This document shows, in pieces, positions 30,934 to 61,956 of a stretch of DNA of 64,000 nucleotides (the first letter of the stretch is position 1; each line of letters starts with the position of its first letter). The stretch is from an archaeon. Its GTDB lineage: Archaea > Hydrothermarchaeota > Hydrothermarchaeia > JALTZZ01. The stretch is from assembly GCA_027051165.1 (NCBI GenBank), contig JALTZZ010000029.1:9001-73000 (forward strand), given 5' to 3'. The position numbers were made by a program, and so were the translations under genes. The notes below the pieces were generated by a model. That model made no database searches. It was not told the DNA's origin and saw nothing but the letters and a program-made list of their open reading frames with translations.

Positions 30934-30946
30934 TAAAAAGTCTATT
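30934..30946 (+). promoter_or_regulatory. Provirus promoter motif TTTAAAAAGTCTA (AAAGTCT 25-26 nt upstream of ATG 30963)
   Basis: Member of the recurrent TTTTTAAAGTCT family. Confidence 0.45.
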
Positions 30947-30962
30947 CAAGAATTCGCAAAAC

Positions 30963-31223
30963 ATGGCCGAGGAAAAGAAGGAAGAAAAGTTATGTTTAAT
31001 TTTGAACATGGTGAACTGGAGCGATTTTGAAGTTACAAACTTAAGGCTCGTAGAAGGAACTTTCGAAGGAACGCTAATAAACAAAAAAACGGGAAAAGAA
31101 GTATCAAAAGTTAAGTTTACTGTAGAGTTCAACAATCCCCAAACAGCAAAAACATACATCCCTGCGGACACTATACTCCAGCTATTTCTGAATAGCCAGC
31201 GTAAGCAGCCCCCCGACCAGTAG
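30963..31223 (+). CDS. Hypothetical protein
   Basis: 86-aa ORF preceded by the conserved promoter motif. Confidence 0.35.
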   Translation: MAEEKKEEKLCLILNMVNWSDFEVTNLRLVEGTFEGTLINKKTGKEVSKVKFTVEFNNPQTAKTYIPADTILQLFLNSQRKQPPDQ

Positions 31224-31247
31224 ATTTTTCGTATTTTTCTTTATCGG

Positions 31248-32504: not shown

Positions 32505-32507
32505 GCG

Positions 32508-35214: not shown

Positions 35215-35736
35215 ATGGAAAGAATAGTTAAATGCAAGCTTGACTGCTGCGATACCAGAGCTTTCGAGTGCGACGAGGAAAATTGCAAAACACAGATGCT
35301 GTGCTGCAAATGTCCAAGTGGAACACCTGAGTTACCAAAAGTAGAGTGTCCAAACTGCGGGGCTATTGCAGACATGGGCGAGCTTTTCGAAGTCGAGACA
35401 TTCCCAGAAACGAGCTTACAAAAGATTTACAACAAAATAGCAGGAATAATAAACGATTTCATTTTATTTTTAAGGGACGTATTAAGTGGCGGAGTGTATT
35501 GCTCTAAATGGCCAAAAATCATAAACAAAATAACGGGAAGATCAAGGTTTAGAGTTCCCTACAAGATAGTTGATAAGCTACTGCCAACACTTCCATACTG
35601 GAGACTAAAATATTTTGATCATTTTATTTGGATCTGTAAAAAATGCGGAATGAAGTATTTAGACCCGGATCCTTATACTTTTCTAACTTTTGATTATAAA
35701 AAAGAGGAGTGTGTGGAAAATGAAGGCCGTTTGTGA
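35215..35736 (+). CDS. Cys-rich hypothetical protein
   Basis: Multiple CxxC pairs (CKLDCCD, CCKCPSG, CPNCG, CKKCGM); GGAGG Shine-Dalgarno sequence upstream. Confidence 0.35.
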   Translation: MERIVKCKLDCCDTRAFECDEENCKTQMLCCKCPSGTPELPKVECPNCGAIADMGELFEVETFPETSLQKIYNKIAGIINDFILFLRDVLSGGVYCSKWPKIINKITGRSRFRVPYKIVDKLLPTLPYWRLKYFDHFIWICKKCGMKYLDPDPYTFLTFDYKKEECVENEGRL

Positions 35737-36466
35737 AGGAAAATACCTACGGGGAGTATTTGAGGCGGTAGGAAAGATAGTGAACACAGCAATACTGAAA
35801 GCAAGCGAGGACGGCATGAAACTGAGAGCAATGAACTCAGAGCATACAATACTCGTTGACATGGAACTTGAAAAAAGTTTGTTCGAAGACTACGAAATAG
35901 AAGAAGACGAAAGCATAGGCATAGACATTAGCCAGCTGCTGAAGATACTGAAAAGAGCGAAAAAAGACGACAACATTACATTAGAAACAAGCAAAGAAAC
36001 AATAAAAATAACAATTGACGGCACTGCAGAGAGGACGTTTGAGTTCCCAGCATTAGCAGACGTCGAAGAAGATGAAATAAAGTTCCCAGAGCTTAACTAT
36101 GAAGCGGAAATATCCATTGAGGATCCAAGTGTCCTTAAGGAAATCATGAAAGACGTGGAGATAGTAGGCAACGCTGCTGTGCTTAAGGCAACAAAAGAGG
36201 AGTTTATAATACAAGCTCAAGGAAACGGATATGCATTCTCGAGCTACAAAGCGGCTCCCAGCAACATAAGCCTAAACCTTGATGAAGAGGCTGAAGAGGT
36301 AAAAAGTGCGTTCTCCGTCGAGCTCCTGAAGGATGTTCTGAGAGCGGACAAGTTCATATATAATGCTAAGGTCCATCTTGGCAACGACATCCCACTTAAG
36401 CTTGAGTATACAGGGCCGGGAATAAAGCTGACATACCTAATAGCCCCAAGAATCGAAAACGAATAA
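35720..36466 (+). CDS. Virus-encoded PCNA (DNA polymerase sliding clamp) homologue
   Basis: MKAVCEGKYLRGVFEAVGKIVNTAILKASEDGMKLRAMNSEHTILVDMELEKSLFEDYEIEEDESIGIDISQLLKILKR ... LGNDIPLKLEY ... LIAPRIE matches the PCNA topology and motifs over ~248 aa. Confidence 0.7.
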   Translation: MKAVCEGKYLRGVFEAVGKIVNTAILKASEDGMKLRAMNSEHTILVDMELEKSLFEDYEIEEDESIGIDISQLLKILKRAKKDDNITLETSKETIKITIDGTAERTFEFPALADVEEDEIKFPELNYEAEISIEDPSVLKEIMKDVEIVGNAAVLKATKEEFIIQAQGNGYAFSSYKAAPSNISLNLDEEAEEVKSAFSVELLKDVLRADKFIYNAKVHLGNDIPLKLEYTGPGIKLTYLIAPRIENE

Positions 36467-36518: not shown

Positions 36519-37142
36519 ATGGATAAAAAAACATATTATCAGACCAGAAACAAAATATTTAATGTCATTTGGATATCAATAATCCCACCAAGGGGGTACA
36601 ACAGAAGGAAGAAGATAGTAATTCTGCCGAGCGAGCTACATAAATTCGTTTTCTGTCCAAAACAATTTTTATTCGACAAAAAATTAAAGAGAAAACCGCC
36701 ATTAAAGAGAAGGATTCTTATTCTTATAGGAAAGATAAAACATTATTTATATATAAAGAGAGGCTACAAGAAAGAGCACCTGCTCGAGGCCGAAATACCA
36801 TGGCTTAACGCAGTGCTGATAGGCAAACCAGATGCTTTCAAAGTTAAAGATAATGTAATAATTCTGGAAGAACTAAAAAATAGGAATGGGCCACTTAATG
36901 GTGCATGGGATTCTGATGTAATTCAAGCATTAGCTTACGCATATCTTTTAAAAGAAAACTATGGCAAAAACGTTAAGATAACTATAATATATAAGAACAG
37001 AAAAGTCGAAGTTCCTTATAACGAGGCTCTTTTAAAGCTATGTTTAGCGGACTATGTAGCCGTAGCAATCGGAGCAAGCGTCCCCATAGCCAAGAAAAGC
37101 GGAAAGTGCAGATGGTGCCAATATCAAGCGGAGTGCAAATAA
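36519..37142 (+). CDS. Cas4-like PD-(D/E)XK nuclease with Fe-S cysteine motif (viral Cas4-like)
   Basis: N-terminal Cys (FVFCPKQF); D..ExK (GKPDAFKVKDNVIILEELK); C-terminal C-x2-C-x5-C (CRWCQYQAEC). Confidence 0.55.
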   Translation: MDKKTYYQTRNKIFNVIWISIIPPRGYNRRKKIVILPSELHKFVFCPKQFLFDKKLKRKPPLKRRILILIGKIKHYLYIKRGYKKEHLLEAEIPWLNAVLIGKPDAFKVKDNVIILEELKNRNGPLNGAWDSDVIQALAYAYLLKENYGKNVKITIIYKNRKVEVPYNEALLKLCLADYVAVAIGASVPIAKKSGKCRWCQYQAECK

Positions 37143-38256: not shown

Positions 38257-38268
38257 TTTTAAAGTCTT
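38257..38268 (+). promoter_or_regulatory. Provirus promoter motif TTTTAAAGTCTT (AAAGTCT 26 nt upstream of ATG 38287)
   Basis: Member of the recurrent motif family. Confidence 0.45.
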
Positions 38269-38286: not shown

Positions 38287-38787
38287 ATGAAGCTTGACAA
38301 ACTTGACGCCACTAAGGAAAAGCTTGACAACCTTGACGAGCTTGACGCTGTGACCGTGCCCAATCCCCGCTGCAAAATCTGCCGCTCGCCATATTTGCAC
38401 GAGATAAACAGGATGCTTATTGAAGGCAAGCCATACAGCGAGATAATAGCCAAGTTCCCAGATCTCAATCTAAACAAGCAGAACATAAGCAACCATAAAA
38501 AACACTTTAATTTCATTAGACGAGGGATAGAAAAATATTACCAACAGCTTGAGGAGGGGGCTGACAAGATCGTTGACACTATAAAAATCCTCGACGATGT
38601 AATAATGAGGAGCTACGTTTTTTTAGCTGAAACGAACCCAAAAGAAAAGCCAAGAGTTTGGGAAGTTCTAACAAATGCAATATACAGGGCAGCAAGTTTA
38701 AAACATAAAATAATGGGAGACTATGATGAAGAAGAAGGTTTACTCGAAGAAATATTTGGAAAAGCTGAGGATATTGAAGAAAAATAA
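38287..38787 (+). CDS. Putative terminase small subunit (position-based) with N-terminal CTTGAC repeat cluster
   Basis: Immediately upstream of, and overlapping, terL. The 5' 75 nt contain five CTTGAC hexamers (KLDKLD..KLDNLDELD). Confidence 0.35.
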   Translation: MKLDKLDATKEKLDNLDELDAVTVPNPRCKICRSPYLHEINRMLIEGKPYSEIIAKFPDLNLNKQNISNHKKHFNFIRRGIEKYYQQLEEGADKIVDTIKILDDVIMRSYVFLAETNPKEKPRVWEVLTNAIYRAASLKHKIMGDYDEEEGLLEEIFGKAEDIEEK

Positions 38788-40087
38788 AGAATTGAAAGAA
38801 AAAATTAAAAAAGATCCAGTTATATTTTCAAAATTTCTTCTTAATTTTGACCCTCATGAAGCACAGCAACAAATAATGAGAGATACACACAAATTTATAA
38901 CAGTAGTTGCAGGAAGAAAGTTTGGTAAAACAAAATGCATGGCAGCATATGCTTTATTTTACGCTTTAACAAATCCTAAGCATAGAATACTCGTCGTTGC
39001 ACCAAGCTATTCCCAAGCGTCAATAATGTTTAGGGAAATGTATAATTTTATAAGAAGATCAATTATAAACAAATATGTGTCAAAAATACTAAAAACTCCG
39101 TTTCCACAGATATATTTCAAGAACGATGCTGAAATACATGCAAGATCAACACAAAATCCGGACCTACTGAGAGGTGAGGAAGCAAATCTAATAATAATGG
39201 ATGAAGCTGCATATATTAAAGACGATGTAGTAACCAACGTTCTTGAGCCAATGCTACTTGTAACAAATGGCAGGTGGATAAAAATATCTACACCAGCTGG
39301 TCATAATCATTTTTATGATACCTTCCTTAAGGGACTAAGTGAAGAGTTCCCAGAATATTCAAGTTATCACTTCACATCAACGGCTAATCCTTATGTAAGC
39401 GAAGACTTTATTGAACTAAAAAAGAAAGAGCTTGGAGAAAATTCAATTGCTTTTAGAACAGAATATTTAGCTGAGTTCGTAGAGGATCATAATGCAGTTT
39501 TCAGATGGTCAGATATTCAGAAAAATGTTGCAGATATTGAGCTAATTGACGGGGCTGAGCATATAAGCCGCAGCTATGTTATAGGAGTTGATTTAGCTAA
39601 ATATCAAGATTATACTGTTATCTGCGTTCTCGATGCAACTGAAAAGCCCTATCGCTTAGTTCATTTTGAGAGGTTTAACAGAAGACCTTACGCAGAGGTT
39701 ATTGAGAGAGTTAAGGATCTACATCGCAGGTTCAACGGTGCCAAGGTTCTAATAGACAGCACTGGTGTAGGAGACCCTATCCTGGAGGAACTGCAAGCTT
39801 CTATAGGAGCCGAGGGATACGTATTTACGAGTAAGAGCAAGGTGCAACTTATTCAGAAATTACAAGCTGTTATGGAGAATGGGGAAATAAAATACCCGTA
39901 TATCGAGCCGTTGGTCAAGGAACTACAATTTTTCGAATACCAATTGACGAGAACAGGCGTAAAAATGGAAGCAAGGCAAGGAATGCACGACGACTGTGTG
40001 ATAGCACTTGCATTAGCCGTGTGGGCGGCGGAGCAGTATTCAGGCTCTGCGGGTGGGGAGATCTATCTTGGCTACTCATTTTTATAA
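38723..40087 (+). CDS. terL: Terminase large subunit
   Basis: Walker A VVAGRKFGKTK; Walker B LIIMDEAAYI; C-terminal RNaseH-like nuclease segment (VIGVDLAKYQDYTVICVLD ... HDDCVIALALA). Confidence 0.7.
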   Translation: MMKKKVYSKKYLEKLRILKKNKELKEKIKKDPVIFSKFLLNFDPHEAQQQIMRDTHKFITVVAGRKFGKTKCMAAYALFYALTNPKHRILVVAPSYSQASIMFREMYNFIRRSIINKYVSKILKTPFPQIYFKNDAEIHARSTQNPDLLRGEEANLIIMDEAAYIKDDVVTNVLEPMLLVTNGRWIKISTPAGHNHFYDTFLKGLSEEFPEYSSYHFTSTANPYVSEDFIELKKKELGENSIAFRTEYLAEFVEDHNAVFRWSDIQKNVADIELIDGAEHISRSYVIGVDLAKYQDYTVICVLDATEKPYRLVHFERFNRRPYAEVIERVKDLHRRFNGAKVLIDSTGVGDPILEELQASIGAEGYVFTSKSKVQLIQKLQAVMENGEIKYPYIEPLVKELQFFEYQLTRTGVKMEARQGMHDDCVIALALAVWAAEQYSGSAGGEIYLGYSFL

Positions 40088-40153: not shown

Positions 40154-40921
40154 TCACGGAGATGAGCTCAAATACAAGTTAACCATCAGCAGCAAATGCC
40201 TTCTAAGGCTCGTAAAGCCATACTCCAAGCTCTCGGTTATCACCTCCAGTTCTTTTGAATTATAAACATACGAATAAAGACTATAGGGCGAGTATTGCCT
40301 AAACTCTATTTCTTTTTTCAACTTCTCAAAATCAATTTTGCTTTTTGCTTTAAGGCTATATCTGCTAAAACTTTTGAACCTAACTCTTCTCGTGATCATG
40401 GCAGACAATCTATCGAACTTCTGCAGGGTTTTAAGCTCCTCATCCTCAATTTCATCATGATGGTGAACGCAGAGCCATCTTACCCTATCGTCCTTAATCT
40501 CGACATCAAAGTAAATTTTGCTCTGATGCTTAGGCGTAGAGACGAAATCATGAAGCAACATAGCTAAAACCATTCTTTCCTGAGCAGGAGAGAGCTTTGG
40601 CAAGCACCTCATTATTTTTATCTTTTTTCTTGGCTTTGGCGGAGCAACATTCTCCTCAACTTTAAGCCAGCGAACTCTACCCATACCTTCGCTTTGGAAC
40701 CTTCCTAAAGAATCAAGTAACAAAACCTTCTCAGGCTCGTTTGTATAATACTCAACAATGCCGAAAAAAGCCTTAAAACTGCTTGGAAACATTCTAACAT
40801 CCTTCTTTATCTTCCCGTAGAATCTTTCAACACCCTTAATTATAACGAGACCGTAATCATGTCCAAATCTTCTTTCCTTGGTAACAATAGGCGTTATAGT
40901 TTTGCCGACTACCTTAAACAT
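40154..40921 (-). CDS. Hypothetical protein with an N-terminal RAMP-like G-rich-loop segment and a C-terminal His-rich (HD-like?) region
   Basis: N-terminal ~90 aa end in LGRFQSEGMGRVRW (G-x5-G-h-G loop). The C-terminal part carries LLHDF and CVHHHDEIED. Last gene of the 4-gene minus-strand cassette. Confidence 0.3.
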   Translation of the reverse strand: MFKVVGKTITPIVTKERRFGHDYGLVIIKGVERFYGKIKKDVRMFPSSFKAFFGIVEYYTNEPEKVLLLDSLGRFQSEGMGRVRWLKVEENVAPPKPRKKIKIMRCLPKLSPAQERMVLAMLLHDFVSTPKHQSKIYFDVEIKDDRVRWLCVHHHDEIEDEELKTLQKFDRLSAMITRRVRFKSFSRYSLKAKSKIDFEKLKKEIEFRQYSPYSLYSYVYNSKELEVITESLEYGFTSLRRHLLLMVNLYLSSSP

Positions 40922-41669
40922 TTAGAACCCTCACCTTCTCCTTATACTCGACCTTATAGCCGTCTATCGTTTTAACAAGCTTTCTGATCTCCTCAACCTC
41001 TTCAAGAACTATTTTCCTCAGCATAACTTTACCGTAGCCAGCATTGACCCCGCCGCCAAGCTCTTCTATATAAAGCAAAGATTCAAGAATGAAATTAAGT
41101 TCCTCATCGTTAAGCTTGGTCACATCAATGAAAAAAGTAAAGTCTCCGCTTATATATCCCTCCTTGAAGTCCTGTATTGGTTTCTTGTCGTAGCTTAGAG
41201 CAATTCTGTTTTCCGTTGCGATGTGCATTTTTACAATAGGAATATCTGACCTATACTCCGCATGCTTTATATTTGCTATCGGGGGACTCCATACTCTTAT
41301 TTTGCTTGGAACATGCATAGAGCCAAATATTTTATGAATTATGCACTCGTTTAGCGGATAGCAGCTTCCAAGCGGATGGAATCCCTCAGGTATAAGCTTG
41401 TTTCCGTGCTTATCCTCTTCTTTGTCAGATGTATGGCAGACCTCTATACCCTTGGCTCTGGCACATCTCATAGCTGCATGCCTTAGCAAGCCCTTGAGCC
41501 CCTTGATGTAGTAAGCTTCCGCCTTGTGCTCCTTACCGTTGTTCGTGTAGGGAACCGGAGCAAGCTTAAGCAAAACCTTAGATTTTTGAACCGTTCCGTT
41601 GCTCGGCTTTGCTATGGGAGTATAGGCTTCAACTCTTATTCTTTTATATTTCTTCTTTATCTCAAACAT
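40914..41669 (-). CDS. RAMP-like (Cas7/Csm3- or Cas6-like) protein encoded in the provirus, with no CRISPR locus in the window
   Basis: YYIKGLKGLLRHAAMR resembles the (S/G)xxKGxLR RAMP motif. A four-Cys cluster (C-x8-C...C-x6-C) is followed by IIHKIFGS (cf. the Csm3 CxxC-RLFGS). C-terminal G-rich loop ELGGGVNAGYGKV. Confidence 0.35.
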   Translation of the reverse strand: MFEIKKKYKRIRVEAYTPIAKPSNGTVQKSKVLLKLAPVPYTNNGKEHKAEAYYIKGLKGLLRHAAMRCARAKGIEVCHTSDKEEDKHGNKLIPEGFHPLGSCYPLNECIIHKIFGSMHVPSKIRVWSPPIANIKHAEYRSDIPIVKMHIATENRIALSYDKKPIQDFKEGYISGDFTFFIDVTKLNDEELNFILESLLYIEELGGGVNAGYGKVMLRKIVLEEVEEIRKLVKTIDGYKVEYKEKVRVLNV

Positions 41670-51238: not shown

Positions 51239-51688
51239 ATGATAAGAGAAGTGCTTGAAAGCTTGGTAAGGCTACTTAGGGATAACATAGCTGATCCTGA
51301 TCAAGACAGAGCAAATGCTGGCAAAAACTTTATTTTTCCCGGTTGGGTTAGAGAAGATGCCAAAATGCCTCGTATTAGCATAATTTCTGTCGGCACAACT
51401 GAGCAAGAAAGAACGCTTGAAGGTTATTCGCTTTTTGCAATGCAGTATCAAATAGACGTCTGGGTAGATACAAAACGTAGCTTTACGATTAACAATGAAA
51501 AATACAGCGGTGCAAAGCTTCGTGACTATTTAGCTGATCAGGTAATTAAGGTTTTGAGAAAAAATCGCAATTTTATGGAGAACGTAGTTGATGTGGAAAT
51601 TAGAAACGTTCAGGATTTTGAGGAGCGGGAATTTAATCTTTTACGCAAATCTATCACGATCACGGTAAAATATCTGGAGGTTAGCTGA
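51239..51688 (+). CDS. Hypothetical tail-module protein
   Basis: ~150 aa (ORF opens at GTG 51215; ATG 51239 is the likely start), between the gp10-like and major tail genes. Confidence 0.3.
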   Translation: MIREVLESLVRLLRDNIADPDQDRANAGKNFIFPGWVREDAKMPRISIISVGTTEQERTLEGYSLFAMQYQIDVWVDTKRSFTINNEKYSGAKLRDYLADQVIKVLRKNRNFMENVVDVEIRNVQDFEEREFNLLRKSITITVKYLEVS

Positions 51689-51690
51689 AA

Positions 51691-52161
51691 ATGGCTGAAA
51701 TAGCTTATGAAAAGATGTTGAAAGAAGATTTGATTAGATTATGCTACGAAAAAGATGAACAGATAGCAAGTTTACAAGCACAGGTTAACGAGAAGGACGA
51801 GCAGATAGCGAGCCTGCAGGCACAATTGCAGGAATACAGCACTGTGAAGCAGGAACTTGAAAACATGAAAACGCTTGTAAATACACTATTTTCAAAAGAA
51901 GAGATTAAATTTAGGTTAAATGAGAAAATAAGTATTTTAGAAGAGCAAAAACAGAACATCAAGCAGAGGATAAAAGAAATACAGAATACCATAAATTTAA
52001 CAGATTCTGAAAAAACAAAGCTGGTAGCTGGTTATAATAAGCAAATAGCACAGATAGATGACGAAATAACAAAACTCAGGATTATTTTAGATTTATATTA
52101 TTCGGAAGGGGTGAAACTGCATGACTGCACTTATAGGAAATCAGGTTTTGGAGTATGTTGA
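51691..52161 (+). CDS. Coiled-coil protein with duplicated EKDEQIASLQAQ unit
   Basis: 156 aa; tandem 39-nt duplication at ~51750-51830. Confidence 0.3.
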   Translation: MAEIAYEKMLKEDLIRLCYEKDEQIASLQAQVNEKDEQIASLQAQLQEYSTVKQELENMKTLVNTLFSKEEIKFRLNEKISILEEQKQNIKQRIKEIQNTINLTDSEKTKLVAGYNKQIAQIDDEITKLRIILDLYYSEGVKLHDCTYRKSGFGVC

Positions 52162-53017
52162 GGAAGCGAGCGAAGGACAGACGCCAGCAGATCCAGCGAT
52201 GCAGTGGATAGGCATACTTAACAATGTAAGCTTGAAGCTGCCGCAGAAATACACAACATCCCGCTATCTTGCCGACAATGCAAGCACAAACAAGCTCGGA
52301 GCTTTAATAAACGTAAAGCACAGCGAAGAGATAGAACTTAGTTTCACGGTGGAGCTACAGAGTCTCGATTTTTGGGCGAAATATTGTTTGGGAAGTGCAA
52401 CAGGAACGGCAGACAACCTACCAAGCCTATCGTTTGGCATAATCGTTGACGTGGCAGGAACTAAGCATTACGCACTTGTGAAGGGTGCAAAGTGCAAAGA
52501 GGCTAAAATTTCGATAGAAGAAGATGGCACACTGAAACTTGAAGCTACATTTAGGGCTATGGACTTTACAGGCTTCAGCACAACGGACTACATAGGTTTA
52601 GGTTCACATGCAACGGCTAATACAGCACCGCCGTTGAAGTGGAAAGATATTAGCGGTGTGCAATGGGGAGCAGCCCCTATGGATAATTACGGTTGCTACG
52701 TCAAGGGTATAAGCATAAACGTGAGCTACGATCTTAAGGAAGTTAAGGACGTCGGAGCTACCACGAGCACAGGCATAGTAACTATAGTTCCCGTTAAGAG
52801 GGAAATCAAGGTTGGATTAGTAGCAGATTTCCTAAACGTGGACATGGTAAGCAATGTAAGGAATGGAAGCAAAGCGGATCTCGCTATTACAGTTGGAGCA
52901 CAGACTATAACAGTCAAAGACGTTATCTTCCCAGAGGTTGATTTTGAATTGAAACCAGATGATCTCATAGAATACGAGTTTGAATCTCTTGAATGCACAG
53001 GAATAGCAATCGCATAA
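52121..53017 (+). CDS. Putative major tail protein
   Basis: 298 aa; position upstream of the chaperone/frameshift gene; beta-rich composition. Confidence 0.4.
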   Translation: MTALIGNQVLEYVEEASEGQTPADPAMQWIGILNNVSLKLPQKYTTSRYLADNASTNKLGALINVKHSEEIELSFTVELQSLDFWAKYCLGSATGTADNLPSLSFGIIVDVAGTKHYALVKGAKCKEAKISIEEDGTLKLEATFRAMDFTGFSTTDYIGLGSHATANTAPPLKWKDISGVQWGAAPMDNYGCYVKGISINVSYDLKEVKDVGATTSTGIVTIVPVKREIKVGLVADFLNVDMVSNVRNGSKADLAITVGAQTITVKDVIFPEVDFELKPDDLIEYEFESLECTGIAIA

Positions 53018-53029
53018 CGGTGATTCGGT

Positions 53030-53494
53030 ATGAAAATAAAGTATCGCAAGGATCCGCTTCATAAAGATGTCAAAAAAGTAAGAAAACTACAGAAGCAGAT
53101 ATTTTTCAAAGTTTTAAACCTAAGCGAAATCAGCAAAGAAGACAAGAATAAGAGCGTAGAGGAGTTTATCGCTGAGAAGTTAGCCAAAAATCCTGAGAAA
53201 TTAGCAGAGTTACAGGATGAGCTTGAGGAGTTCAACTACATTGCAACGATAATTCTTGCTACAGGGCTTGAACCTGAAGAGATTGAAAAGCTCAGTGAGG
53301 AGCAGTTCTGGGAGGTTTACGAGAAAAGCAAGGAGGCTTTAGGAGGTAAAACTGCTGAGGATTTTTTAAGTCGCTACACAAACGTTACTTCGTTGATGCA
53401 GGCGAAAACAAGCTTAGAATCGCCGACCTTATCGAGCCAGATGGAAGAGAATTCACCAGATCAGTTAAAAGAGCCCTCAAGGGTAAAGAAGTAA
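53030..53494 (+). CDS. Putative tail assembly chaperone (gpG-like)
   Basis: 154-aa acidic protein downstream of the major tail gene. It overlaps a -1 frame ORF that stays open to 53664. Confidence 0.4.
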   Translation: MKIKYRKDPLHKDVKKVRKLQKQIFFKVLNLSEISKEDKNKSVEEFIAEKLAKNPEKLAELQDELEEFNYIATIILATGLEPEEIEKLSEEQFWEVYEKSKEALGGKTAEDFLSRYTNVTSLMQAKTSLESPTLSSQMEENSPDQLKEPSRVKK

Positions 53495-53664
53495 GGAACG
53501 AGTGGCTGGAAGAGTATGCTTTGTGCAAAGAATTCGGGTGGACCTATGAACAACTGCAAAATACGCCTGAGGAAGTTGTCATTGCGTTTTCAAGGATCAT
53601 GAGCATAAAAGCGAGATATGAAGAATTAGAGATGAAAAAACTTGAGAAGGAGGTTAAAAAATGA
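53359..53664 (+). CDS. -1 frame extension ORF (gpT-like part of a putative G-T frameshift fusion)
   Basis: 101 codons open in the -1 frame with no internal ATG start. The translation GFFKSLHKRYFVDAGENKLRIADLIEPDGREF...EVKK* is protein-like. Slippery heptamer T_TTT_TTA at 53362-53368 in the 0 frame. The stop overlaps the ATG of the next gene (ATGA). Confidence 0.4.
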   Translation, partial: GFFKSLHKRYFVDAGENKLRIADLIEPDGREFTRSVKRALKGKEVRNEWLEEYALCKEFGWTYEQLQNTPEEVVIAFSRIMSIKARYEELEMKKLEKEVKK

Positions 53665-55430
53665 AAATCGGAAGGGTTGAAATCCCTGCAATCACTAAAA
53701 TTGAAAAGAAACCTCTCAAGGGCGGAGTATATGAAATTAGCATAGATGGAGTATGCTTTAAGAATTCTACATTTAAAGATGAGCTTGACGTTCAGATAGA
53801 GAATATTCACAGTTTAAAGAGCGATGACTTGAGCGAGCCGAAGCTTATTCATGCGGTAGGTGTGAAATCACCTATAATCGTTGACAGTAAAGCTGGTTAT
53901 AACTTCATTGACTATGCAGGTCTGAGAGGCTTCATTGCTGTTAAAGAAATAAACGAGAATAAAGACGCTGAGAGGCTTAATATTAGGGAAGTAAGCATAT
54001 CAGGGTTCTATATGCCTGATACGATTTACAAGCGAGCTTTAAAGCTCAGCATCACAGACCTTCAAAACGACTGGGGCATAACAGGGAGAACTCTCGTAGC
54101 TCTTCCGCCAAACAGCAAGAATATAGGAGGGGCAACTGAGCTATACACGATTGACAGCGAGGACGGGCAGATAGGCATATACGAGGCAAGCGGAGATGAG
54201 GTGGCTTTTGACTGCGAATTGAGCGATGAAGAGCTCGGGGCGGTGACGGTGTGGGATACCAACAGCACTACAGCGCCTACAGAGACCGATTTAGCTAATA
54301 AATCAACAGGTGGAGTAGCATGGAGCAAAGTGTTAAACAAGGAGCATGATTTCGGGGATAATTGGATAGTAATAGAAAATGGATTAATAGCTATAGCAAT
54401 AAAAGATAACACACCAGAGGCTAAAGTGTTTTACTATAATACTGGGTGGAAAGAGTTAGGAGTTCTTACACTTAGATTTCCAAATTGGGGATTTATAGAT
54501 AGGGTAAGAATAACGTATATTAGCCCAGATATAGTAAAAATGAAAGTGTTCTTCACAGGAGATGCAGTAAATAACCCAGATGAATATGAGACAACAATTA
54601 TAAGCATATTTAGAGGAAAGAGTATCATAAATATAGAAACAATAGATAGAAATCCAGATAATGATTATTCAGTATGTCTTACAGTTTATGGAGATTTCTT
54701 TGTTTCAGATACTTATGTGAAGGATAGAACACTATTTCCATCTATATATACGGATGGAACAAACCAATATGCTATTCAATTTAAAAAGAACAGCGATTTT
54801 ATAGCATTAATATATAATACTAAGCAGAGACTACTAAACGTTTCTTTTGGATTAAGAGTTGGAATTCCAAACATGAAATACTATGGTTTTGCTATAATTC
54901 CGTTTGATACAACTAAATTATTTGCAGAAGCTGAGAATGGAACAATAAGTGGTGATACTACAAATGTTTTCGTAGATTCTGATGTAGATGCAAGCAACGG
55001 ACAGGCAGTTAAATTTCAGCCCGTAACAGCTAATAGCTATATAGTAATAGCAAATATGACAGGACTACCAGCTGGCAAGTATAGAATCTTCTATAGAATA
55101 AAAGTTGATGATAATACTGATACCAACTATGTAGTAAGAATATATACAGTTAACGTTGATACAGGAGAATATCCTAACAGCACAATACTAACGGGAACAG
55201 ATTTTACGAGTGCTAATACGTATGAGTATAAGTATTTTGACATAGATTATGATGGAGTTAGCAATATAAGCATAAGAGCAAGCAGAGCAACCACATACAG
55301 CTCTACAACAAGTGCGTGGATAGATTATGTGCTCATAGTTCCAATCACCAACGGCAAAAACTTCCCGCAAGACATAGCACATGATGCAATGAGGCTTGTG
55401 GAACCGAGAAGAGTTTTAAAAGTGAGATAA
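53661..55430 (+). CDS. Large hypothetical virion protein (possible tail fibre/receptor-binding; AT-rich C-terminal half)
   Basis: 589 aa, beta-rich and Asn/Thr/Tyr-rich C-terminal half; translationally coupled to the chaperone extension. Confidence 0.35.
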   Translation: MKIGRVEIPAITKIEKKPLKGGVYEISIDGVCFKNSTFKDELDVQIENIHSLKSDDLSEPKLIHAVGVKSPIIVDSKAGYNFIDYAGLRGFIAVKEINENKDAERLNIREVSISGFYMPDTIYKRALKLSITDLQNDWGITGRTLVALPPNSKNIGGATELYTIDSEDGQIGIYEASGDEVAFDCELSDEELGAVTVWDTNSTTAPTETDLANKSTGGVAWSKVLNKEHDFGDNWIVIENGLIAIAIKDNTPEAKVFYYNTGWKELGVLTLRFPNWGFIDRVRITYISPDIVKMKVFFTGDAVNNPDEYETTIISIFRGKSIINIETIDRNPDNDYSVCLTVYGDFFVSDTYVKDRTLFPSIYTDGTNQYAIQFKKNSDFIALIYNTKQRLLNVSFGLRVGIPNMKYYGFAIIPFDTTKLFAEAENGTISGDTTNVFVDSDVDASNGQAVKFQPVTANSYIVIANMTGLPAGKYRIFYRIKVDDNTDTNYVVRIYTVNVDTGEYPNSTILTGTDFTSANTYEYKYFDIDYDGVSNISIRASRATTYSSTTSAWIDYVLIVPITNGKNFPQDIAHDAMRLVEPRRVLKVR

Positions 55431-55523: not shown

Positions 55524-56657
55524 TTATTTAATTTCGATTATAATTTTAATTCTTTCTTTCTTCGAATCCAAGATGTAATAATCTTCGGGTATAAACTTCC
55601 AGCCATCAGGAATTCTCTCTTTTATTTTATTAGCACTATTTTCTTCTTTCTGTGCTTCGCTTAATTTACGTTCATGTTCTAACAATAAACTACCCCAATT
55701 TTTACACGAACCCGTAATTCTGCAATTTTGTATGTATAAATACCAATATGCTTCTTTATACTTTCTGCAAGCCCATTTCATTTTGTTTGTCCATTCTCTT
55801 AGCTTTCTTAAGTTTTCTTTGTCAATGCTTCCCAAATATCTACCTTCCTCGCTTAGAATACTGTTCAAACGCTTCTCGGCTGATGAGAAATGCTCTTCGC
55901 ATTTCCTTGCATCATAATATATATCATATACACTTTCGTTGACGATCCTTATTCTTGGTCTAAATGCGTTGTAACTTTTTAGGGCATTGTCAATATCTTC
56001 TTTCGCATACATGTATTTATAAACTGCTTTCTCTGAAATTAATAAACAATTTCTTAAAAATGGTGGTTCCTCGTATAATAACCATTCATTACCTTCTTTT
56101 TTAAGAGTGTAGTGTCTTTTTATCAACAACTTCGGAGATTCGAGTTTAAAATAAACTTCTGCAGTATTATCCTTCACTTTCGTTTTAATTATCTCAACGT
56201 CAAAGCCTTCTTCCTCAGATAAAAGAAGCTCAGCGTTTCTTTCTATTATTCTGTCTGCTGTCCAGTCAAGCCCTCTTTCCTCTCTACATTTTTCTTCTAT
56301 ACGGTTTTTTATATCTTTATGGACGTATTTCGGAACTTCATTAAAATCTTTATACGCTATAGCGTCGAAAAATGCTTTTATTGTTTTTGCTGGTTCTGGA
56401 GAGTTTTCTTTACTTTTATTTCTGCTTGAATTTTGTTTACTTAAATTCTGTTGAACGTTTTTCTGTTCTTCAATTTCTTTTGTTTTATTTTCTACTTTGG
56501 CTGGTTTAGGAACTTCAATTTTTTCTTCCTGTTTAGTTATATTTTGTTTTTCGAGCTCTTTTACTTGTAGTTGTTGTTCTTCTTGTATTTTTTGAACCTG
56601 CTCACATCCTGTTAACAATATTACTAAAAGCATGAAAACCATAAGTTTGTGCTTCAT
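55524..56657 (-). CDS. Lipoprotein (signal peptide plus lipobox LLTGC), oppositely oriented inserted gene
   Basis: MKHKLMVFMLLVILLTGCEQ is a signal peptide with a lipobox; a Lys/Glu-rich linker follows, then a globular domain; lies in an AT-rich island between tail genes. Confidence 0.45.
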   Translation of the reverse strand: MKHKLMVFMLLVILLTGCEQVQKIQEEQQLQVKELEKQNITKQEEKIEVPKPAKVENKTKEIEEQKNVQQNLSKQNSSRNKSKENSPEPAKTIKAFFDAIAYKDFNEVPKYVHKDIKNRIEEKCREERGLDWTADRIIERNAELLLSEEEGFDVEIIKTKVKDNTAEVYFKLESPKLLIKRHYTLKKEGNEWLLYEEPPFLRNCLLISEKAVYKYMYAKEDIDNALKSYNAFRPRIRIVNESVYDIYYDARKCEEHFSSAEKRLNSILSEEGRYLGSIDKENLRKLREWTNKMKWACRKYKEAYWYLYIQNCRITGSCKNWGSLLLEHERKLSEAQKEENSANKIKERIPDGWKFIPEDYYILDSKKERIKIIIEIK

Positions 56658-56692
56658 TGTTATATTATCTTCTTTCTCATCATTTTTAAAGT

Positions 56693-56705
56693 CTTCGTTT
56701 TAAAG
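56693..56705 (+). promoter_or_regulatory. Provirus motif TTTTTAAAGTCTT upstream of the TMP gene (only 8 nt from ATG 56714)
   Basis: Member of the recurrent family with atypically short spacing. Confidence 0.3.
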
Positions 56706-56713: not shown

Positions 56714-59455
56714 ATGCCAACCGTAGAGGAACTAATCGTAAAAATAAAAGCTGATGTGGCGAGTTTACAAGCTGGTTTAGTCAAAGCTCGTGAAATGCTC
56801 AGCGATTTCACAGATAAGGTTGAAAAACTAAGCAAAAGCATGCGAAGCATGGCACTAAAAATGATGGCTGTAGGCGGGGCAGTTTCAGCAGGATTCGGTT
56901 TAGCAATCAAGGAAGGAATGGAACTCGAGCAACAAATGGCATACGTAGCAAAAACGACGGGTTTAGCAGGAGAACAGCTTATAGAGCTTAGAGATAGCTT
57001 GCTCGCATTGAGCACACAGATGCCTACATCAGTTGAAGAACTCGCACAGATAGCACAGATAGCAGGTCAGCTTGGTATACAGGGTAGAGCAGCAATCCTC
57101 GAGTTCACGAAAACAGTTGCACAGATGAGCGTAGCTTTTGATATGACTGCTGAAGATGCTACAATAAACATGGCAAAAATTGCAGGTGCTTTTGCATTGC
57201 CCATTAAACAAGTTAAAAATCTCGCAAGCGCTATAAACGTTTTGGGTAATACAACAGCAGCTGCAGAGAGAGAAATTTTAAACGCTCTAAGAAGGTTTGC
57301 AGGTGTAGCCTCTCAGTTTAATATAACGGCTGACTCAGCTTCTGCACTTGTTGCAACGTTAATTGCCCTTGGTGAAGAGCCAGAAAGAGCTGGCTATCGC
57401 TTGTCATCAGCTATTCTCGATCTCACGGACAATTTAGATAAACTTGCACTACAAATGAGGACAACTGTTGAGGAACTTAAGAAACGTTTAGATATGGGTG
57501 ATGCTTTAGGGGTCCTTCTCGACTATTTGAACTACTTGAGACGTATACCAAGCGAAACAGAAAGAGCGGCACTGGCACAGGAAGTATTTTCAGCAGATGC
57601 ATACAGGGCAGTAGCTAAGCTTATAACAGCTTACGACACTCTTCAAGTAAACTTAAAAAATGCTCAGCAAGGCTTTATAGAAGGAACAGCACTTGCGAAG
57701 GAGTATGAGAACGCAACAGCAACGTTGGCGGCACAATTCCAGAGATTAAAGAATGCTATGAAGCTAATAATGATTAAGGTTTTTGATAAAATAAAACCTG
57801 ATTTGGACAATTTTGTAACAAGTATCGAGAGAGCGCTTCCACAGATTTACGCTTTTGCGATAGTATTTGCTAAAACGCTAATTCCAACGTTAAAGCAGTT
57901 TGGTCAGGCTTTATTATCACTTATGAAGTGGTTCATGAACTTGTCTCCGGCTCAGAGAGAGGCATTAATAAAGTTTACTGCGATAGGCACGGCTGTAACC
58001 ATGCTTTTAGGACCGTTGCTACTATTAGCATCGTTTACACTTCCGCTTTTAGCGAAAAGCTTTAAAATGGTTGCTGGAGCTGCATTGTTCAGCACAAGGG
58101 CATTGTTAGCTTTCAGAAGCGGTGCGATATCGGCGAGAATGGTGAGCATAGCAACAGCTATAAGTTTAGCAAGACTCAGAGCAGCTTTATTTGCAGTTTC
58201 AAGGGTAGCAGGAGTTATAGGTCTAATAACAGGTGCTTTGTGGGCTATAAACAAGGGCGTTGAGAAATTTACAGGTAAGGCACTAACAACAAGAATAATG
58301 GAGAGGATCGAAGGAACATGGTTCGGCAAAGCAATATCGAGCTTAAAAGAAAAACTTGGATTACAAAAGCAAATTACAGATGAAAAGAAAGAGGAACTTG
58401 AGATAGAAAGAGAAATGAAAGAATTTGAGGATATTATGAAAAAGATAAAAGAAGAACAGCTTAAAATAGAAACTGCAATAAAAAATATTAAACAAGAAAC
58501 GTTAGAATACACGTTTGAGCAATCAAAACAAGAAAAAATAAACTTAGACTTGCTAACTAAAGCTGTTGAAATTTACAATAAACTCATAGCTCTTAAGGTT
58601 AAGGGCAAGGAACTAACAGTTAGGGAGCAGGCAGAACTGGCTTGGGCTTCTGATATTATAAGCGAAGCTAAAAAGCTATACGAGGATCTCGTAGCTAAGC
58701 AAATGCAAGGTGAACAGCTTACAAGTTCGCAGGTGACAACCTTATCGCAACTACAGGCGATTTTGAGCGGTGTTGTTAGCGAAGCAGAGTTATTAAGTAA
58801 TGCTTTCGGTAAAGCAGGTTTTAAAATAGATGAAATAAGAGAGAAAGCAAGACAGCTTGCTGAGGAAGCACATAGATACTTACAGGAAATCGGAGCAGAA
58901 GAAAAGCCAGCACCGCCAAAGCCATATATACCGCATAAACTCGAAGATACCGTGCAAGAGTTCGTTAGAAGATTTAGAGAAGAGCTTGGAATCGACAAGG
59001 CAAGAGAGTTGGCAGTCAAGTTCTATGAGGAGTTCTGGCATGTAACTGTTAGCGAGGAGAAGAAGCGTGAGCTCGGTATAAAAGTCAAAGCTAAGGTTGA
59101 CAAAACAGAATTAGAGGAATTTTTAAATCAAAAAGTAGAAAAAGTTATTGACATAGTTCCAAATATGGAAAACTTAAAAATACAAGATTTAACAGCTAAT
59201 TTAAAGATAAATACAGATACGACAGTTTTACAAACAGTTAATGATATGCTTACAAATATACAGACAAAAATAAATAATTTGAATGCCATTGTGTTGAGTC
59301 CACTTATAACACAATTTTCAAGCTTGGCTGGTGCAATAAACAACGTATATAACAAACTTGAAGCTGTTGAAGCTAAGTTAAACTCTTTGCAAGGAAAAAG
59401 AATTGATGTTTACATAGACTTACACAACGACCTCGCAAGGAGGGGTGTATTCTAA
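56714..59455 (+). CDS. Tail tape measure protein
   Basis: 913 aa; TMP-family N-terminal region (AVGGAVSAGFGLA...LAGEQLIELRDSLLALSTQMPTSVEELAQIAQIAGQLG); central hydrophobic helices; long coiled coils. Confidence 0.75.
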   Translation: MPTVEELIVKIKADVASLQAGLVKAREMLSDFTDKVEKLSKSMRSMALKMMAVGGAVSAGFGLAIKEGMELEQQMAYVAKTTGLAGEQLIELRDSLLALSTQMPTSVEELAQIAQIAGQLGIQGRAAILEFTKTVAQMSVAFDMTAEDATINMAKIAGAFALPIKQVKNLASAINVLGNTTAAAEREILNALRRFAGVASQFNITADSASALVATLIALGEEPERAGYRLSSAILDLTDNLDKLALQMRTTVEELKKRLDMGDALGVLLDYLNYLRRIPSETERAALAQEVFSADAYRAVAKLITAYDTLQVNLKNAQQGFIEGTALAKEYENATATLAAQFQRLKNAMKLIMIKVFDKIKPDLDNFVTSIERALPQIYAFAIVFAKTLIPTLKQFGQALLSLMKWFMNLSPAQREALIKFTAIGTAVTMLLGPLLLLASFTLPLLAKSFKMVAGAALFSTRALLAFRSGAISARMVSIATAISLARLRAALFAVSRVAGVIGLITGALWAINKGVEKFTGKALTTRIMERIEGTWFGKAISSLKEKLGLQKQITDEKKEELEIEREMKEFEDIMKKIKEEQLKIETAIKNIKQETLEYTFEQSKQEKINLDLLTKAVEIYNKLIALKVKGKELTVREQAELAWASDIISEAKKLYEDLVAKQMQGEQLTSSQVTTLSQLQAILSGVVSEAELLSNAFGKAGFKIDEIREKARQLAEEAHRYLQEIGAEEKPAPPKPYIPHKLEDTVQEFVRRFREELGIDKARELAVKFYEEFWHVTVSEEKKRELGIKVKAKVDKTELEEFLNQKVEKVIDIVPNMENLKIQDLTANLKINTDTTVLQTVNDMLTNIQTKINNLNAIVLSPLITQFSSLAGAINNVYNKLEAVEAKLNSLQGKRIDVYIDLHNDLARRGVF

Positions 59456-61938
59456 TGCTTCCAATGCAGGGAGAAGTTAAGGTTTATATTGCTAACAAGC
59501 TTATAGACAAAGTTAAACGTTGTGAAGTAAGGCAAGCTGTAAGCATAGCAAATGGTGAAGCGGTAATTGAACTTGAAAACATAACAGAGGAATACAACGA
59601 CATTAATGTCAATGATACAGTTGAAATATATGCAAGCGATGCATGGGCTACAGACAAGTTAATTTTCAAGGGATACGTAAGAAGCATAAAGCATATTATA
59701 AGAAATGAGGAAAATATTATACAGATAAGAGCAGTTGACGACACGAACAAGCTCCATTATCGTTTTGTCAATGCAGAAGAGTTCTACGTCTGGGAAATCG
59801 GCGATTTGGTTAAGGAGATAGTTAAAGATTTAGGATTTGACACGAGCAACGTAAATAGCAGTTTTATAGCAACAGAAGCGGGGCCAACTGCAAGCTACAA
59901 CTCCGGAGCAGCAACAATGCTAAATGGTGGAGTAACATTCACATGCACATGGAGCGACCTTGATAGCTACATTTACGTAAAGCTGAGAGGCGGAAGCTAC
60001 GAGTTCAGGATGGGCAAAAGTGGTAATGGTGCATATTTTGAGTTCTGGAAGGGTTCAACAAGACTGAGCTACTTCACACTAAACGATTTCATCTTTTCTC
60101 AAGACTTTGAAGTAAGGCTTGTTGCAAGAGGCTCTGAGTTTAGGGTATACGTAAAAGACGCTCAAATGCAAACGTATACTAAAGTGCTTGATGTTGTGGA
60201 TGAGGAATTTCAGAACGCAGGTTATGTTGAGATAGGTAGTGATGCTGGCAATTCTGCTTTCTCAAATATCAAAATTATAGACGAAAACAACATGATTGAG
60301 CATATACAAGTTAAGGGCCGTAGTTTGTTTGATGTTTTACAAGAATTAGCTGAAGCTAAAGCAATTCATGACGAGTATCACGACTTTTGGGTTGATGACG
60401 GAAAATTATATTTTGTTAGACGTGGCTGGCAGGATACAGGCATAACATTGACGCAAACAACCAATATAAATAAAAATACATGTACTATTCTCGAAAGCGA
60501 GTTTGAGAAATCGCTCTTAGAGGTAAGAAATAAAATAATTGTAAACGGGGCAACGGTGGAGAGGTATTATCCTTGGGATGGAGACATGTTTACAGAAAAA
60601 GCAGCAAACCTATGGATAGGATGGCTTACATGGCAAAAATTAAGGAATTTAGAAGGTTATAACTTAGCAGATAGCAATGATGCAATGGTTGGATTAGCAA
60701 GTATATATATGGCTGCAAGCGGTCTTTCTACAAATTATGGCACCGCACATTTTTGGTTTAATCTTCCAAAGACCATTAATTTAAATATTTTTAAAAGTTT
60801 AAAGTTATGGAAAAAAGCTGTTGGTTATGGTTCTGGTAATATACAGTATATCATGCTGGCATCTGATTATGCATTGAAAAAATATCATGGAAACGCAAAT
60901 GCTACAGAAAATATTGTTTCTGGTAGATATTATGCAATGCCATTTATTGCAAGTTCTGACAGAATAACGCTTTTAGCAGTAAAAGTTGATTATTCTGCAG
61001 ATAGTATAACCGGTGGGAACGTTGAATTTTATTTATATGATGATAATAATGGTATACCGGGTAATTTAATAGCATCTGCTTCATGGAGCTATGCAAATAT
61101 ACAGCTTGGAGGTTGGTGGTGGGTAGAATTCAACGTTTCTGTAGTTCCGGGACAAAAATACTGGCTTGTTTTTAGATCAACACTAACATTTTCTGTATTA
61201 AACTATTATTACTTATATTATGACAGCTCTGGTAACGGAATGCTGTATAGTGACGATGGTACAACATGGAACAATTTTACAGGTGGAACAGCACTCATAG
61301 AAATACGTGAGCCACAAGATTATTTCTATAAAAGTATAGGAGCTAATGAGAGTTGGAATGAAAAAGAGCTTGAAATAGGACCGTTATCTTCATGGAATGT
61401 CGTTGGAAATCCAGACTGGAATAATATAAAAAGTATAGGCATAACATGGACGGATACTGGTGGGACAAGTTATACTGATATTGTATATATTGACGGTCTT
61501 CATTTTGTAAAGCCAAGCGAAAAAGTAACAGTTGTAGCCGAAGACGCTAACTCTCAAGCTCGGTATGGTGTTAGAGAGTTGATAATAAACGATGCAAGTA
61601 TAGCAAGTGAGCAGAGGGCGAGAGACGTTGCGAAAGCAAAGTTAGCGTTGCTTAGGGACGTGAAGAGGCGTGGACGTGTAATTTGTAACGGTAACGTAAA
61701 CCTGCAAGCTGGAAAAATTGTTACTGTTAATATCCCATTACAGGGAATAAACAATGAAAAACTGAGAATTCTTGAAGCTGTGCATAGATTTAACCTTGAA
61801 ACAAAAGAATACCTGTGTGAGTTAAACCTCGATGAAGATTATCCGGCTTTAGATGCAATTTTAAAGAAACAGAAAAAAGAGCTTGACGAAGTAAGAGCAA
61901 GAGTTGCGGCATTAGAGAGTCTTATTGTCAAAACATAA
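59455..61938 (+). CDS. Putative distal tail/baseplate protein with large C-terminal extension
   Basis: 827 aa; starts at the TMP stop (ATGCTTCC overlap), the typical Dit position; the C-terminal ~500 aa are Gly/Asn/Tyr/Trp-rich and beta-rich (receptor-binding-like). Confidence 0.4.
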   Translation: MLPMQGEVKVYIANKLIDKVKRCEVRQAVSIANGEAVIELENITEEYNDINVNDTVEIYASDAWATDKLIFKGYVRSIKHIIRNEENIIQIRAVDDTNKLHYRFVNAEEFYVWEIGDLVKEIVKDLGFDTSNVNSSFIATEAGPTASYNSGAATMLNGGVTFTCTWSDLDSYIYVKLRGGSYEFRMGKSGNGAYFEFWKGSTRLSYFTLNDFIFSQDFEVRLVARGSEFRVYVKDAQMQTYTKVLDVVDEEFQNAGYVEIGSDAGNSAFSNIKIIDENNMIEHIQVKGRSLFDVLQELAEAKAIHDEYHDFWVDDGKLYFVRRGWQDTGITLTQTTNINKNTCTILESEFEKSLLEVRNKIIVNGATVERYYPWDGDMFTEKAANLWIGWLTWQKLRNLEGYNLADSNDAMVGLASIYMAASGLSTNYGTAHFWFNLPKTINLNIFKSLKLWKKAVGYGSGNIQYIMLASDYALKKYHGNANATENIVSGRYYAMPFIASSDRITLLAVKVDYSADSITGGNVEFYLYDDNNGIPGNLIASASWSYANIQLGGWWWVEFNVSVVPGQKYWLVFRSTLTFSVLNYYYLYYDSSGNGMLYSDDGTTWNNFTGGTALIEIREPQDYFYKSIGANESWNEKELEIGPLSSWNVVGNPDWNNIKSIGITWTDTGGTSYTDIVYIDGLHFVKPSEKVTVVAEDANSQARYGVRELIINDASIASEQRARDVAKAKLALLRDVKRRGRVICNGNVNLQAGKIVTVNIPLQGINNEKLRILEAVHRFNLETKEYLCELNLDEDYPALDAILKKQKKELDEVRARVAALESLIVKT

Positions 61939-61943
61939 TATTA

Positions 61944-61956
61944 TTTTTAAAGTCTT
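61944..61956 (+). promoter_or_regulatory. Provirus promoter motif TTTTTAAAGTCTT (AAAGTCT 26 nt upstream of ATG 61975)
   Basis: Member of the recurrent family. Confidence 0.45.

Follow-up and report, generated by a model that had tools for sequence, protein, structure and literature searches.

The provirus and its repeated element

The window analysed here, the whole of a 64-kb stretch of archaeal DNA, contains an integrated tailed virus, and this report concerns a short sequence built around AAAGTCT that recurs in that provirus ahead of start codons and probably acts as the core promoter of its late transcription units. Genes for a thermosome, TFE-alpha, MutS and a phosphoenolpyruvate carboxylase of the archaeal type are found in the first 29 kb of the window and mark the host as archaeal; the best named relatives of the thermosome are in Candidatus Pyrohabitans and Hydrothermarchaeales, both of the phylum Hydrothermarchaeota. 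The provirus, about 34.4 kb in size, is delimited by exact 42-bp direct repeats, the attachment (att) sites. The left boundary, attL (28935–28976, forward strand), is the 3′ part of tRNA-Ala(CGC) (28904–28976), and the second copy of the repeat, attR (63294–63335, forward strand), lies inside the integrase open reading frame (ORF; 62418–63365, minus strand; Pfam archaeal phage integrase). The early region encodes ribbon-helix-helix (RHH), zinc-finger and helix-turn-helix (HTH) proteins, a PCNA homolog and a Cas4-like nuclease, and the morphogenetic region is that of a tailed virus, with TerL, portal, a Mu-F-like protein, an S78 protease, a decoration protein, an HK97-type capsid protein, tail tube and a tape-measure protein.

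Copies of the element in the window

The 12-mer TTTTTAAAGTCT occurs in six exact copies in the window, all on the forward strand, with starts at 42712, 45341, 50170, 51174, 56683 and 61944; dinucleotide-preserving shuffles of the window yield a mean of 0.12 copies and a maximum of one. The 10-mer TTTAAAGTCT has two further copies, at 38258 in the provirus and at 19492, and two variants of the TTTAAAAAGTC type, TTTAAAAAGTCT and TTTAAAAAGTCC, bring the provirus sites to nine in all. A position weight matrix (PWM) trained on related viruses only, when run over the window, recovered the same nine provirus sites plus the copy at 19492. The latter (19492–19501) is an exact TTTTAAAGTCT on the antisense strand inside the host mutS gene (18040–20577), without an ATG at the right distance, and identical sequence is found in mutS of the close relative L132 (at about 7394). 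It is probably a coincidence of the coding sequence; less probably, it marks an antisense transcription start.

Spacings are counted here from the first A of AAAGTCT up to the start codon; all nine provirus sites are on the forward strand. The variant TTTAAAAAGTCT (30932–30943; PWM score 17.8) stands 26 nt before ATG 30963 of an 86-aa ORF that has no Shine–Dalgarno (SD) sequence. At the predicted first late transcription unit, TTTTAAAGTCT (38257–38267) stands 26 nt from ATG 38287 of the terS candidate, which is followed by terL (38723–40087). The TTTTTAAAGTCT copy at 42712–42723 is 26 nt from ATG 42743 of the portal gene, followed by the Mu-F-like gene (43879–45141), and the copy at 45341–45352 is 25 nt from ATG 45371 of a prohead protease/scaffold fusion, in a unit that runs on through the decoration protein, the major capsid protein (MCP; 47072–47869) and small head genes. 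Within that fusion gene, the internal variant TTTAAAAAGTCC (46252–46263; PWM score 14.7) lies 35 nt from an in-frame ATG at 46292, a putative nested scaffold start after which 119 codons remain. The copy at 50170–50181 is 37 nt from ATG 50212, with a predicted leader of about 11 nt that contains the SD sequence GGTGAT, and precedes the head–tail joining genes (50212–51160). At 51174–51185 the distance is 60 nt to ATG 51239 (36 nt to GTG 51215), with a predicted leader of about 34 nt and the SD sequence GAGGAGAG; the tail genes of this unit (51239–55430) include that for the tail-tube protein. The remaining two copies are both 26 nt from their ATGs, that at 56683–56694 from ATG 56714 of the tape-measure gene, followed by a gene for an 827-aa tail protein (59455–61938), and that at 61944–61955 from ATG 61975 of a 78-aa ORF. 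The last was called holin-like in a preceding reading of this DNA from its letters alone (the sequence-only reading), and has a homolog with 46% identity on the L049/L137 contig. The element is seen before late units only, and the early genes, like a small operon discussed below, carry ordinary TATA boxes.

These positions bear on what the sequence-only reading had described. Its account of a motif recurring 25–26 nt before the ATGs at 30963, 38287, 42743, 45371 and 61975 is borne out by measured distances of 26, 26, 26, 25 and 26 nt; the exact form that it gave is found at 42743, 45371 and 61975, and differs at 38287 (TTTT in place of TTTTT) and at 30963 (an A5 variant). The 37-nt spacing before 50212 was correct, as was the listing of 51215/51239 among the copies with other spacings. 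The tape-measure gene, which had been assigned a spacing of 16 nt, in fact has the 26-nt spacing given above, and the supposed variant before 48107 is AAAGTGA at 48091, 13 nt from the ATG, which lacks the GTC core and falls below the PWM threshold.

Two side observations belong to individual copies. A hairpin with a perfect 7-bp stem and a 3-nt loop (50138–50154; GGTGCGG TTT CCGCACC) lies 16 nt 5′ of the motif at 50170, in the 167-nt gap between the minus-strand gene 49490–50044 and 50212. In addition, the A/T block of the copy at 56683 also faces the minus-strand gene 55524–56657, whose divergent ATG (56657) is likewise 26 nt away. Divergent pairs with a gap of 56–66 nt and one near-palindromic TATA block (TTTTTAAA or TTTTTTAAAAAA) in mid-gap are 56657/56714 in the provirus and 5303/5370, 9888/9945 and 25684/25749 in the host part; at the measured 56-nt divergent pairs the TATA block is about 24–26 nt from both ATGs, and the two genes of such a pair may be transcribed without leaders, in opposite directions, from a single TATA box.

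Conservation of the element among related viruses

The capsid protein of the window has 22 homologs with 56–100% identity, the named sources being Geoglobus acetivorans, Archaeoglobus profundus and metagenome-assembled genomes of Archaeoglobaceae; a search of the same protein against phage records gave no match. Ten related viral contigs bear the same element, their capsid proteins, where present, being 61–66% identical and their named hosts Archaeoglobi. The comparison set comprised 11 distinct viruses (205 kb), namely the window provirus and ten loci around homologs of the capsid protein or of a winged helix-turn-helix (wHTH) protein described below. Across these 205 kb, TT[TA]AAAGTC occurs 68 times on the gene strand and twice on the opposite strand, and at 61 of the 68 gene-strand sites an ATG follows 23–28 nt after the first A (25 nt at 42 sites, 26 nt at 14). 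The host-type DNA sampled, 73 kb and probably of Hydrothermarchaeota, is a small and partly redundant set; it comprises the window outside the provirus and loci L131 and L132, with neither Archaeoglobi host DNA nor a whole host genome. Three copies are found in it, both strands counted, and none is followed by an ATG at that distance (Fisher p = 1.4e-6 against the viruses). Neither the first 29 kb of the window nor the two further host-type loci have the motif upstream of a host gene, in agreement with what the sequence-only reading had noticed in those 29 kb.

The conservation is confined to the element itself. Among the protease-gene promoters of the 11 viruses, which are orthologous, pairwise identity is 97% over the 11-mer, 28% over the 40 nt upstream, which is the random level, and 45% over the 17-nt spacer. 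The exact motif is present at the portal orthologs in L001, L004 and L006, and the terS orthologs of relatives have AAAGTCA or AAAGTCC variants 25–26 nt before the ATG. Degenerate copies such as TTTAATAAAGTCT, CTCTTAAAGTCC and AAAGTCA retain the AAAGTC core, which is common to 81 ATG-linked sites in relatives and to the nine sites of the window. The tail modules of the window provirus and of its relatives are non-homologous, and the motif is present in both. Thus GTCT, proposed in the sequence-only reading as a virus-specific promoter determinant, is near-invariant in the 11 related viruses and absent in this role from the 73 kb of host-type DNA, which supports the proposal. A scan of viral contigs for TTTTAAAGTCT-N17-19-ATG returned, among the matches listed, nearly all single chance matches, L049 (3 to 4 copies) being the only proven relative among them. 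Literature searches, including one by motif string, found no description of this motif.

We note two further features of the related loci. L134, L137/L049 and L140 have the motif in common with the window, as well as the genes for the portal, the Mu-F-like protein, the protease, head completion and the wHTH protein. For the window's capsid (47072–47869) and decoration (46644–47060) proteins, no homolog with E below 1e-3 was detected in these loci; replacement of the capsid gene within an otherwise conserved head module may explain this. A tRNA-Gln(TTG) gene is found in related proviruses (L003 10328–10402, L006 14232–14307, L002 1525–1599), in L003 and L006 within the late region and immediately 5′ of a motif copy; the window provirus has no such tRNA.

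Promoter-like geometry and predicted leaderless transcripts

The position of the element is that of a TATA box. The TATA-like TTTTAAAG lies about 22–30 nt upstream of the ATG at the ATG-linked sites, as measured to the ATG itself, and archaeal TATA boxes normally lie this far from the transcription start. The start context is pyrimidine-then-purine, the base preceding the ATG being C or T at most sites, with an A/T-rich octamer centred about 26 nt upstream. The six window genes with a spacing of 25–26 nt have no SD match of at least 5 nt, whereas such a match is present at 11 of 16 other late genes checked in the window, including that at the 37-nt site; examples are GAGGTG before the capsid gene, GGAGGT before 51691 and 53661, and the 6-nt match GGTGAT before 50212. 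At the 60-nt site (51239) the SD core match is of 4 nt only, inside the longer run given above. The pattern, with SD sequences missing at 25–26 nt and present where the ATG is farther away, is the one expected if transcription always begins about 25 nt after AAAG.

The host appears to use much the same arrangement. Thirty host genes of the window and L132 are preceded by an intergenic stretch of 35 nt or more. By strict criteria, 13 of these have a TATA-like octamer of A/T only, 27–35 nt upstream, together with no SD sequence, and five have an SD sequence alone, with no TATA-like octamer. Since many host genes share the TATA-to-ATG geometry, the leaderless design appears to be the host's normal practice and not a viral peculiarity. 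The TATA box and leaderless transcripts proposed in the sequence-only reading thus gain support from the TATA–ATG distance, the SD pattern, the host geometry and a nested-gene copy described below. Its linking of leaderlessness to the provirus stands in so far as six provirus units fit, and falls in so far as host genes are alike in this respect. The sequence comparison supports a division in which AAAGTCT is the virus-specific part of the promoter and leaderlessness is a host trait.

What surrounds the TATA box differs between host and virus. Host promoters have an A-rich stretch resembling a B recognition element (BRE) 5′ of the TATA box, as in aaagcTTTTTAAA, gaaacTTTTTT and gtaaaaTATTTAA, and none has GTC after it. 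The viral sites have no purine-rich BRE, positions −9 to −1 being pyrimidine-rich with almost no G; their AAAGTC is invariant and mostly followed by T, and G is scarce in the spacer. Dyad symmetry and tandem half-sites are not present, as only TTTAAA is palindromic, AGAC does not mirror GTCT, and the upstream flank is 28% identical. A promoter in the reverse orientation, with AGAC as its BRE, was considered and is ruled out as the main function by the missing conservation upstream of the motif and by the ATG fixed downstream of it.

A probable nested scaffold gene

Wherever a related locus includes the protease/scaffold gene, the ORF contains a copy of TTTAAAAAGTC[TC] before an in-frame internal ATG (L001 at about 9220, L002 about 5470, L003 about 3712, L004 about 8244, L005 about 1037, L006 about 9181, L007 about 9178, L134 at 5537, L137 at 7151 and L140 at 3536). 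The distance to the internal ATG is 26 nt in the seven loci counted (L001, L004, L005, L006, L134, L137 and L140), and translation from this ATG, carried out for three relatives, gives a coiled-coil protein of about 120 residues. The corresponding window ORF spans 45371–46651. From this arrangement, the internal element is presumably the promoter of a nested scaffold gene, and a nested scaffold gene with a promoter of its own would be the way in which a host that uses leaderless mRNAs could match the internal translation initiation of phages.

A candidate reader of the element

The gene at 48926–49426 (forward strand) encodes a conserved 166-aa protein with two predicted winged helices, the C-terminal one Pfam-supported, which is a candidate reader of AAAGTCT. 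Residues 105–150 form the winged helix that matches Pfam HTH_24 (7.6e-5), other wHTH matches being weak, and a second, N-terminal winged helix is probable from the sequence pattern and the alignment. The protein has PHROG transcription-regulator matches, and a profile built from the wHTH alignment gave only weak winged-helix matches among solved structures in the PDB (E about 0.03). The linker between the two parts has the pattern RG-P-G, with R94, G95, P97 and G99 invariant (KRGRPRGT in the window), and in sequence it resembles an AT-hook. An asymmetric site composed of an A/T tract and GTCT would suit a two-domain monomer of this kind.

The wHTH gene is present in all ten related contigs with 30–50% identity, and an N-terminal fragment lies at the end of the more distant L141. 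A homolog search started from the wHTH protein led to three more viral contigs with 6–9 motif copies each; one further search with it returned the protein itself and one fragment only. Among the other predicted DNA-binding proteins of the window, only the RHH protein (29528–29887) matches the related contigs, with one weak hit of 35%. The gene appears to have a promoter of the host type: a TATA box without GTC, TTTTATAAA (48724–48732, forward strand), stands 25–33 nt before ATG 48757 and would separately serve the small ORF 48757–48960 and the wHTH gene. Of the seven relatives examined, five (L001, L002, L003, L005 and L007) have a GTC-less TATA-like A/T block 20–35 nt before the ATG of the small ORF; no such block lies at this distance in L004, and the reading of L006 was unclear.

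Other features of the provirus

The PCNA homolog and the Cas4-like PD-(D/E)XK nuclease of the early region are encoded at 35690–36466 and 36519–37142. Between terL and the portal gene is a minus-strand block of four genes (40154–42584), which includes genes for a RAMP-superfamily (CRISPR-Cas-like) protein (40914–41669; Pfam 9.8e-12) and a SWIM zinc-finger protein; the gene beside the former, 40154–40921, has a homolog at 74% identity in the L006 provirus, probably of Geoglobus acetivorans. This block could be defence or counter-defence cargo. At the right end, attR sits in the 5′ part of the integrase ORF, which recalls the 'suicidal' integrases of the SSV type, whose recombination site is likewise inside the gene. 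Integrated elements with integrases of the window's type are already known from Archaeoglobales (PMC7253208).

Interpretation and alternatives

We consider it probable that the motif is the core promoter of the late transcription units of the provirus, those for the virion and for lysis. The TATA box would be TTTTAAAG, from which the host RNA polymerase, TBP and TFB would start at, or within one nucleotide of, the A of the ATG, so that six of the nine units would yield leaderless mRNAs; at the three remaining sites the ATG is farther away, namely at 37 and 60 nt, with an SD sequence in a short leader, and at 35 nt for the predicted internal scaffold promoter. The general form in these proviruses would be TTTTAAAGTC followed by an ATG at 25–26 nt, and the GTC(T) directly 3′ of the TATA box, with its G about 22–23 nt before the ATG, would be specific to this virus family and mark the late regulon. 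In the absence of a purine-rich BRE upstream, the late promoters would in our view depend on GTC(T) for strength and direction. The preferred reader is a virus-encoded late activator, the wHTH protein 48926–49426, an assignment that we hold tentatively and put at somewhat below an even chance; a host-type promoter of its own within the late module appears to drive its gene in the window and in five of the seven relatives examined. An activator is favoured over a repressor because BRE-less promoters should be weak by default and because the site has no dyad symmetry. We infer the transcription start site, the late timing and the identity of the reader from the arrangement of the DNA. On the same footing, what is new here is a predicted core-promoter extension that is late-only, BRE-less and virus-specific, in tailed viruses whose hosts apparently span two phyla.

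Several observations weigh against this interpretation or against parts of it. The window's own nested site is 35 nt from its ATG and not 26 nt, and the host-type sample on which virus specificity was judged is small, partly redundant and without DNA of the Archaeoglobi hosts. The co-occurrence of the wHTH gene and the motif is confounded by common descent, since all these viruses share the head module that contains the gene; the matches of the wHTH protein to known families (Pfam, PDB and PHROG) are weak, and its structure model from a single sequence is unusable, with a pLDDT (predicted local distance difference test) of 52. Moreover, the unrelated rudivirus SIRV2 has the same GTC at the same position, which argues for a host basal factor. 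The promoter would then be the same, and GTC(T) would be read by the basal machinery of the host with no virus factor, either as an extended TATA box or as a downstream TFB contact that replaces the BRE and sets direction, like the downstream BRE (BREd) of eukaryotes. The host of SIRV2 is of another phylum, the GTC element is reported for both SIRV1 and SIRV2 in the account of them in PMC5569661, the motif is retained in viruses whose own hosts appear to span two phyla, and TFB and TFIIB contact DNA on both sides of the TATA box (PMC4581349). The same trinucleotide in the same place in two unrelated viruses, with hosts in different phyla, suggests a conserved target such as the TFB contact downstream of the TATA box. 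However, no sampled host promoter has GTC, although strong host genes would be expected to use a favoured element, and at least seven bases are nearly invariant here, in contrast to the loose consensus of BREd, which excludes C at its third position. We hold a purely basal reader to be less likely than not, yet a serious alternative.

The element could also be an operator, such that a virus repressor, the wHTH protein or another, blocks TBP at the late promoters in the lysogen, the late genes being released on induction. It overlaps the TATA box at every late unit, the host-type promoter of the wHTH operon could be active in the lysogen, and the linker, if it is indeed AT-hook-like, could compete with TBP for the minor groove of TTTAAA. 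Nevertheless, promoters that look weak by default for want of a BRE fit activation better, and in temperate phages such as Mu and P2 the late genes are usually turned on by activators. The asymmetric site, with neither dyad nor tandem half-sites, is also unlike the archaeal virus operators described in PMC5569661, and we hold repression through this site to be improbable. Least probable by far is a role other than that of a promoter, either as an RNA-level signal for processing or translation, placed 25 nt before the AUG on polycistronic transcripts, or as a junction for module recombination. The motif does stand exactly at module borders and is kept by non-homologous tail modules, and a T4-6 run, which can act as an archaeal terminator signal, could be read in that way here. 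Yet the geometry matches the TATA boxes of leaderless host genes, and the appearance of an SD sequence when the ATG is farther away makes sense only with a transcription start about 25 nt after AAAG. Homologous recombination would hardly be served by a stretch as short as 11 bp, and an internal copy precedes the nested in-frame gene.

Comparison with known systems

With the canonical archaeal core promoter, in which TBP and TFB bind a TATA box and a BRE, the viral sites share the A/T octamer, the lack of an SD sequence and the geometry of the neighbouring host genes; they differ in that the BRE is missing and an invariant GTC(T) stands 3′ of the TATA box instead. The eukaryotic BREd has the consensus RTDKKKK, and to our knowledge no archaeal BREd has been defined. 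The viral sequence G-T-C-T-(A/G)-(T/C)-T fits five to six of these seven positions, its invariant C violating D at position 3. What the element shares with BREd is its place directly 3′ of the TATA box, on the DNA touched by the first cyclin repeat of TFIIB/TFB (PMC4581349).

By analogy, the C-dependent promoters of phage Mu and the late promoters of herpesviruses offer a similar design, with one unusual core variant before every late unit, the normal upstream element missing, and a small viral DNA-binding protein as the possible reader. Herpesviruses form a late pre-initiation complex, mentioned in PMC5113994 and PMC6713331, and it has a TATA variant of its own. There is no homology between these systems and the present one, and no viral homolog of TBP or TFB was found among the provirus ORFs scanned against Pfam. 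The nested scaffold gene has a counterpart in bacteriophages such as lambda (C/Nu3), where the nested scaffold arises by an internal translation start, and the arrangement seen here would be an archaeal equivalent at the level of transcription. The timing of expression in tailed archaeal viruses is little known, and here one 11-bp element would define the whole late regulon of an uncultured virus family, so that operon maps could be drawn from sequence alone. Two of the likely hosts, Archaeoglobus profundus and Geoglobus acetivorans, are cultured.

For the rod-shaped Sulfolobus viruses SIRV1 and SIRV2, a virus-specific GTC that follows the TATA box at many viral promoters and is missing from host promoters is reported in the account of Kessler et al. 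(2004) relayed by PMC5569661 and PMC1635249. In SIRV2, W5-GTC is found upstream of 20 of 54 genes with the consensus ATAAAAATGTCAT, and genes that look leaderless have the G 21–23 nt before the ATG. As in the window provirus, GTC directly follows an A-rich TATA box and occupies the same position relative to the ATG. The viruses are unrelated, the one group rod-shaped and infecting Sulfolobus, the other tailed proviruses of Hydrothermarchaeota and Archaeoglobi, and since the taxonomy of SIRV2 and the HK97-type tailed-virus genes place them in different virus realms, we treat the likeness as functional and not as one of descent. The elements also differ, as the SIRV2 consensus has a purine-rich BRE-like stretch upstream in the examples inspected, whereas the sequence here is TTTTAAAGTCT(A/G) without a BRE, and the element of the window virus, unlike that of SIRV, is confined to late structural units. 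One further reading, less likely than not, is that these viruses carry their own promoter-specificity factor, the wHTH protein with its AT-hook-like linker, which would read the TATA box together with GTCT, replace the BRE–TFB contact and thereby form a virus-specific late initiation complex across host phyla; GTC 21–23 nt upstream would then be a recurrent element of archaeal viruses, shared with rudiviruses. Since the element matches the rudivirus GTC in core and in position, there is now a second system in which to test what reads the DNA just 3′ of the archaeal TATA box.

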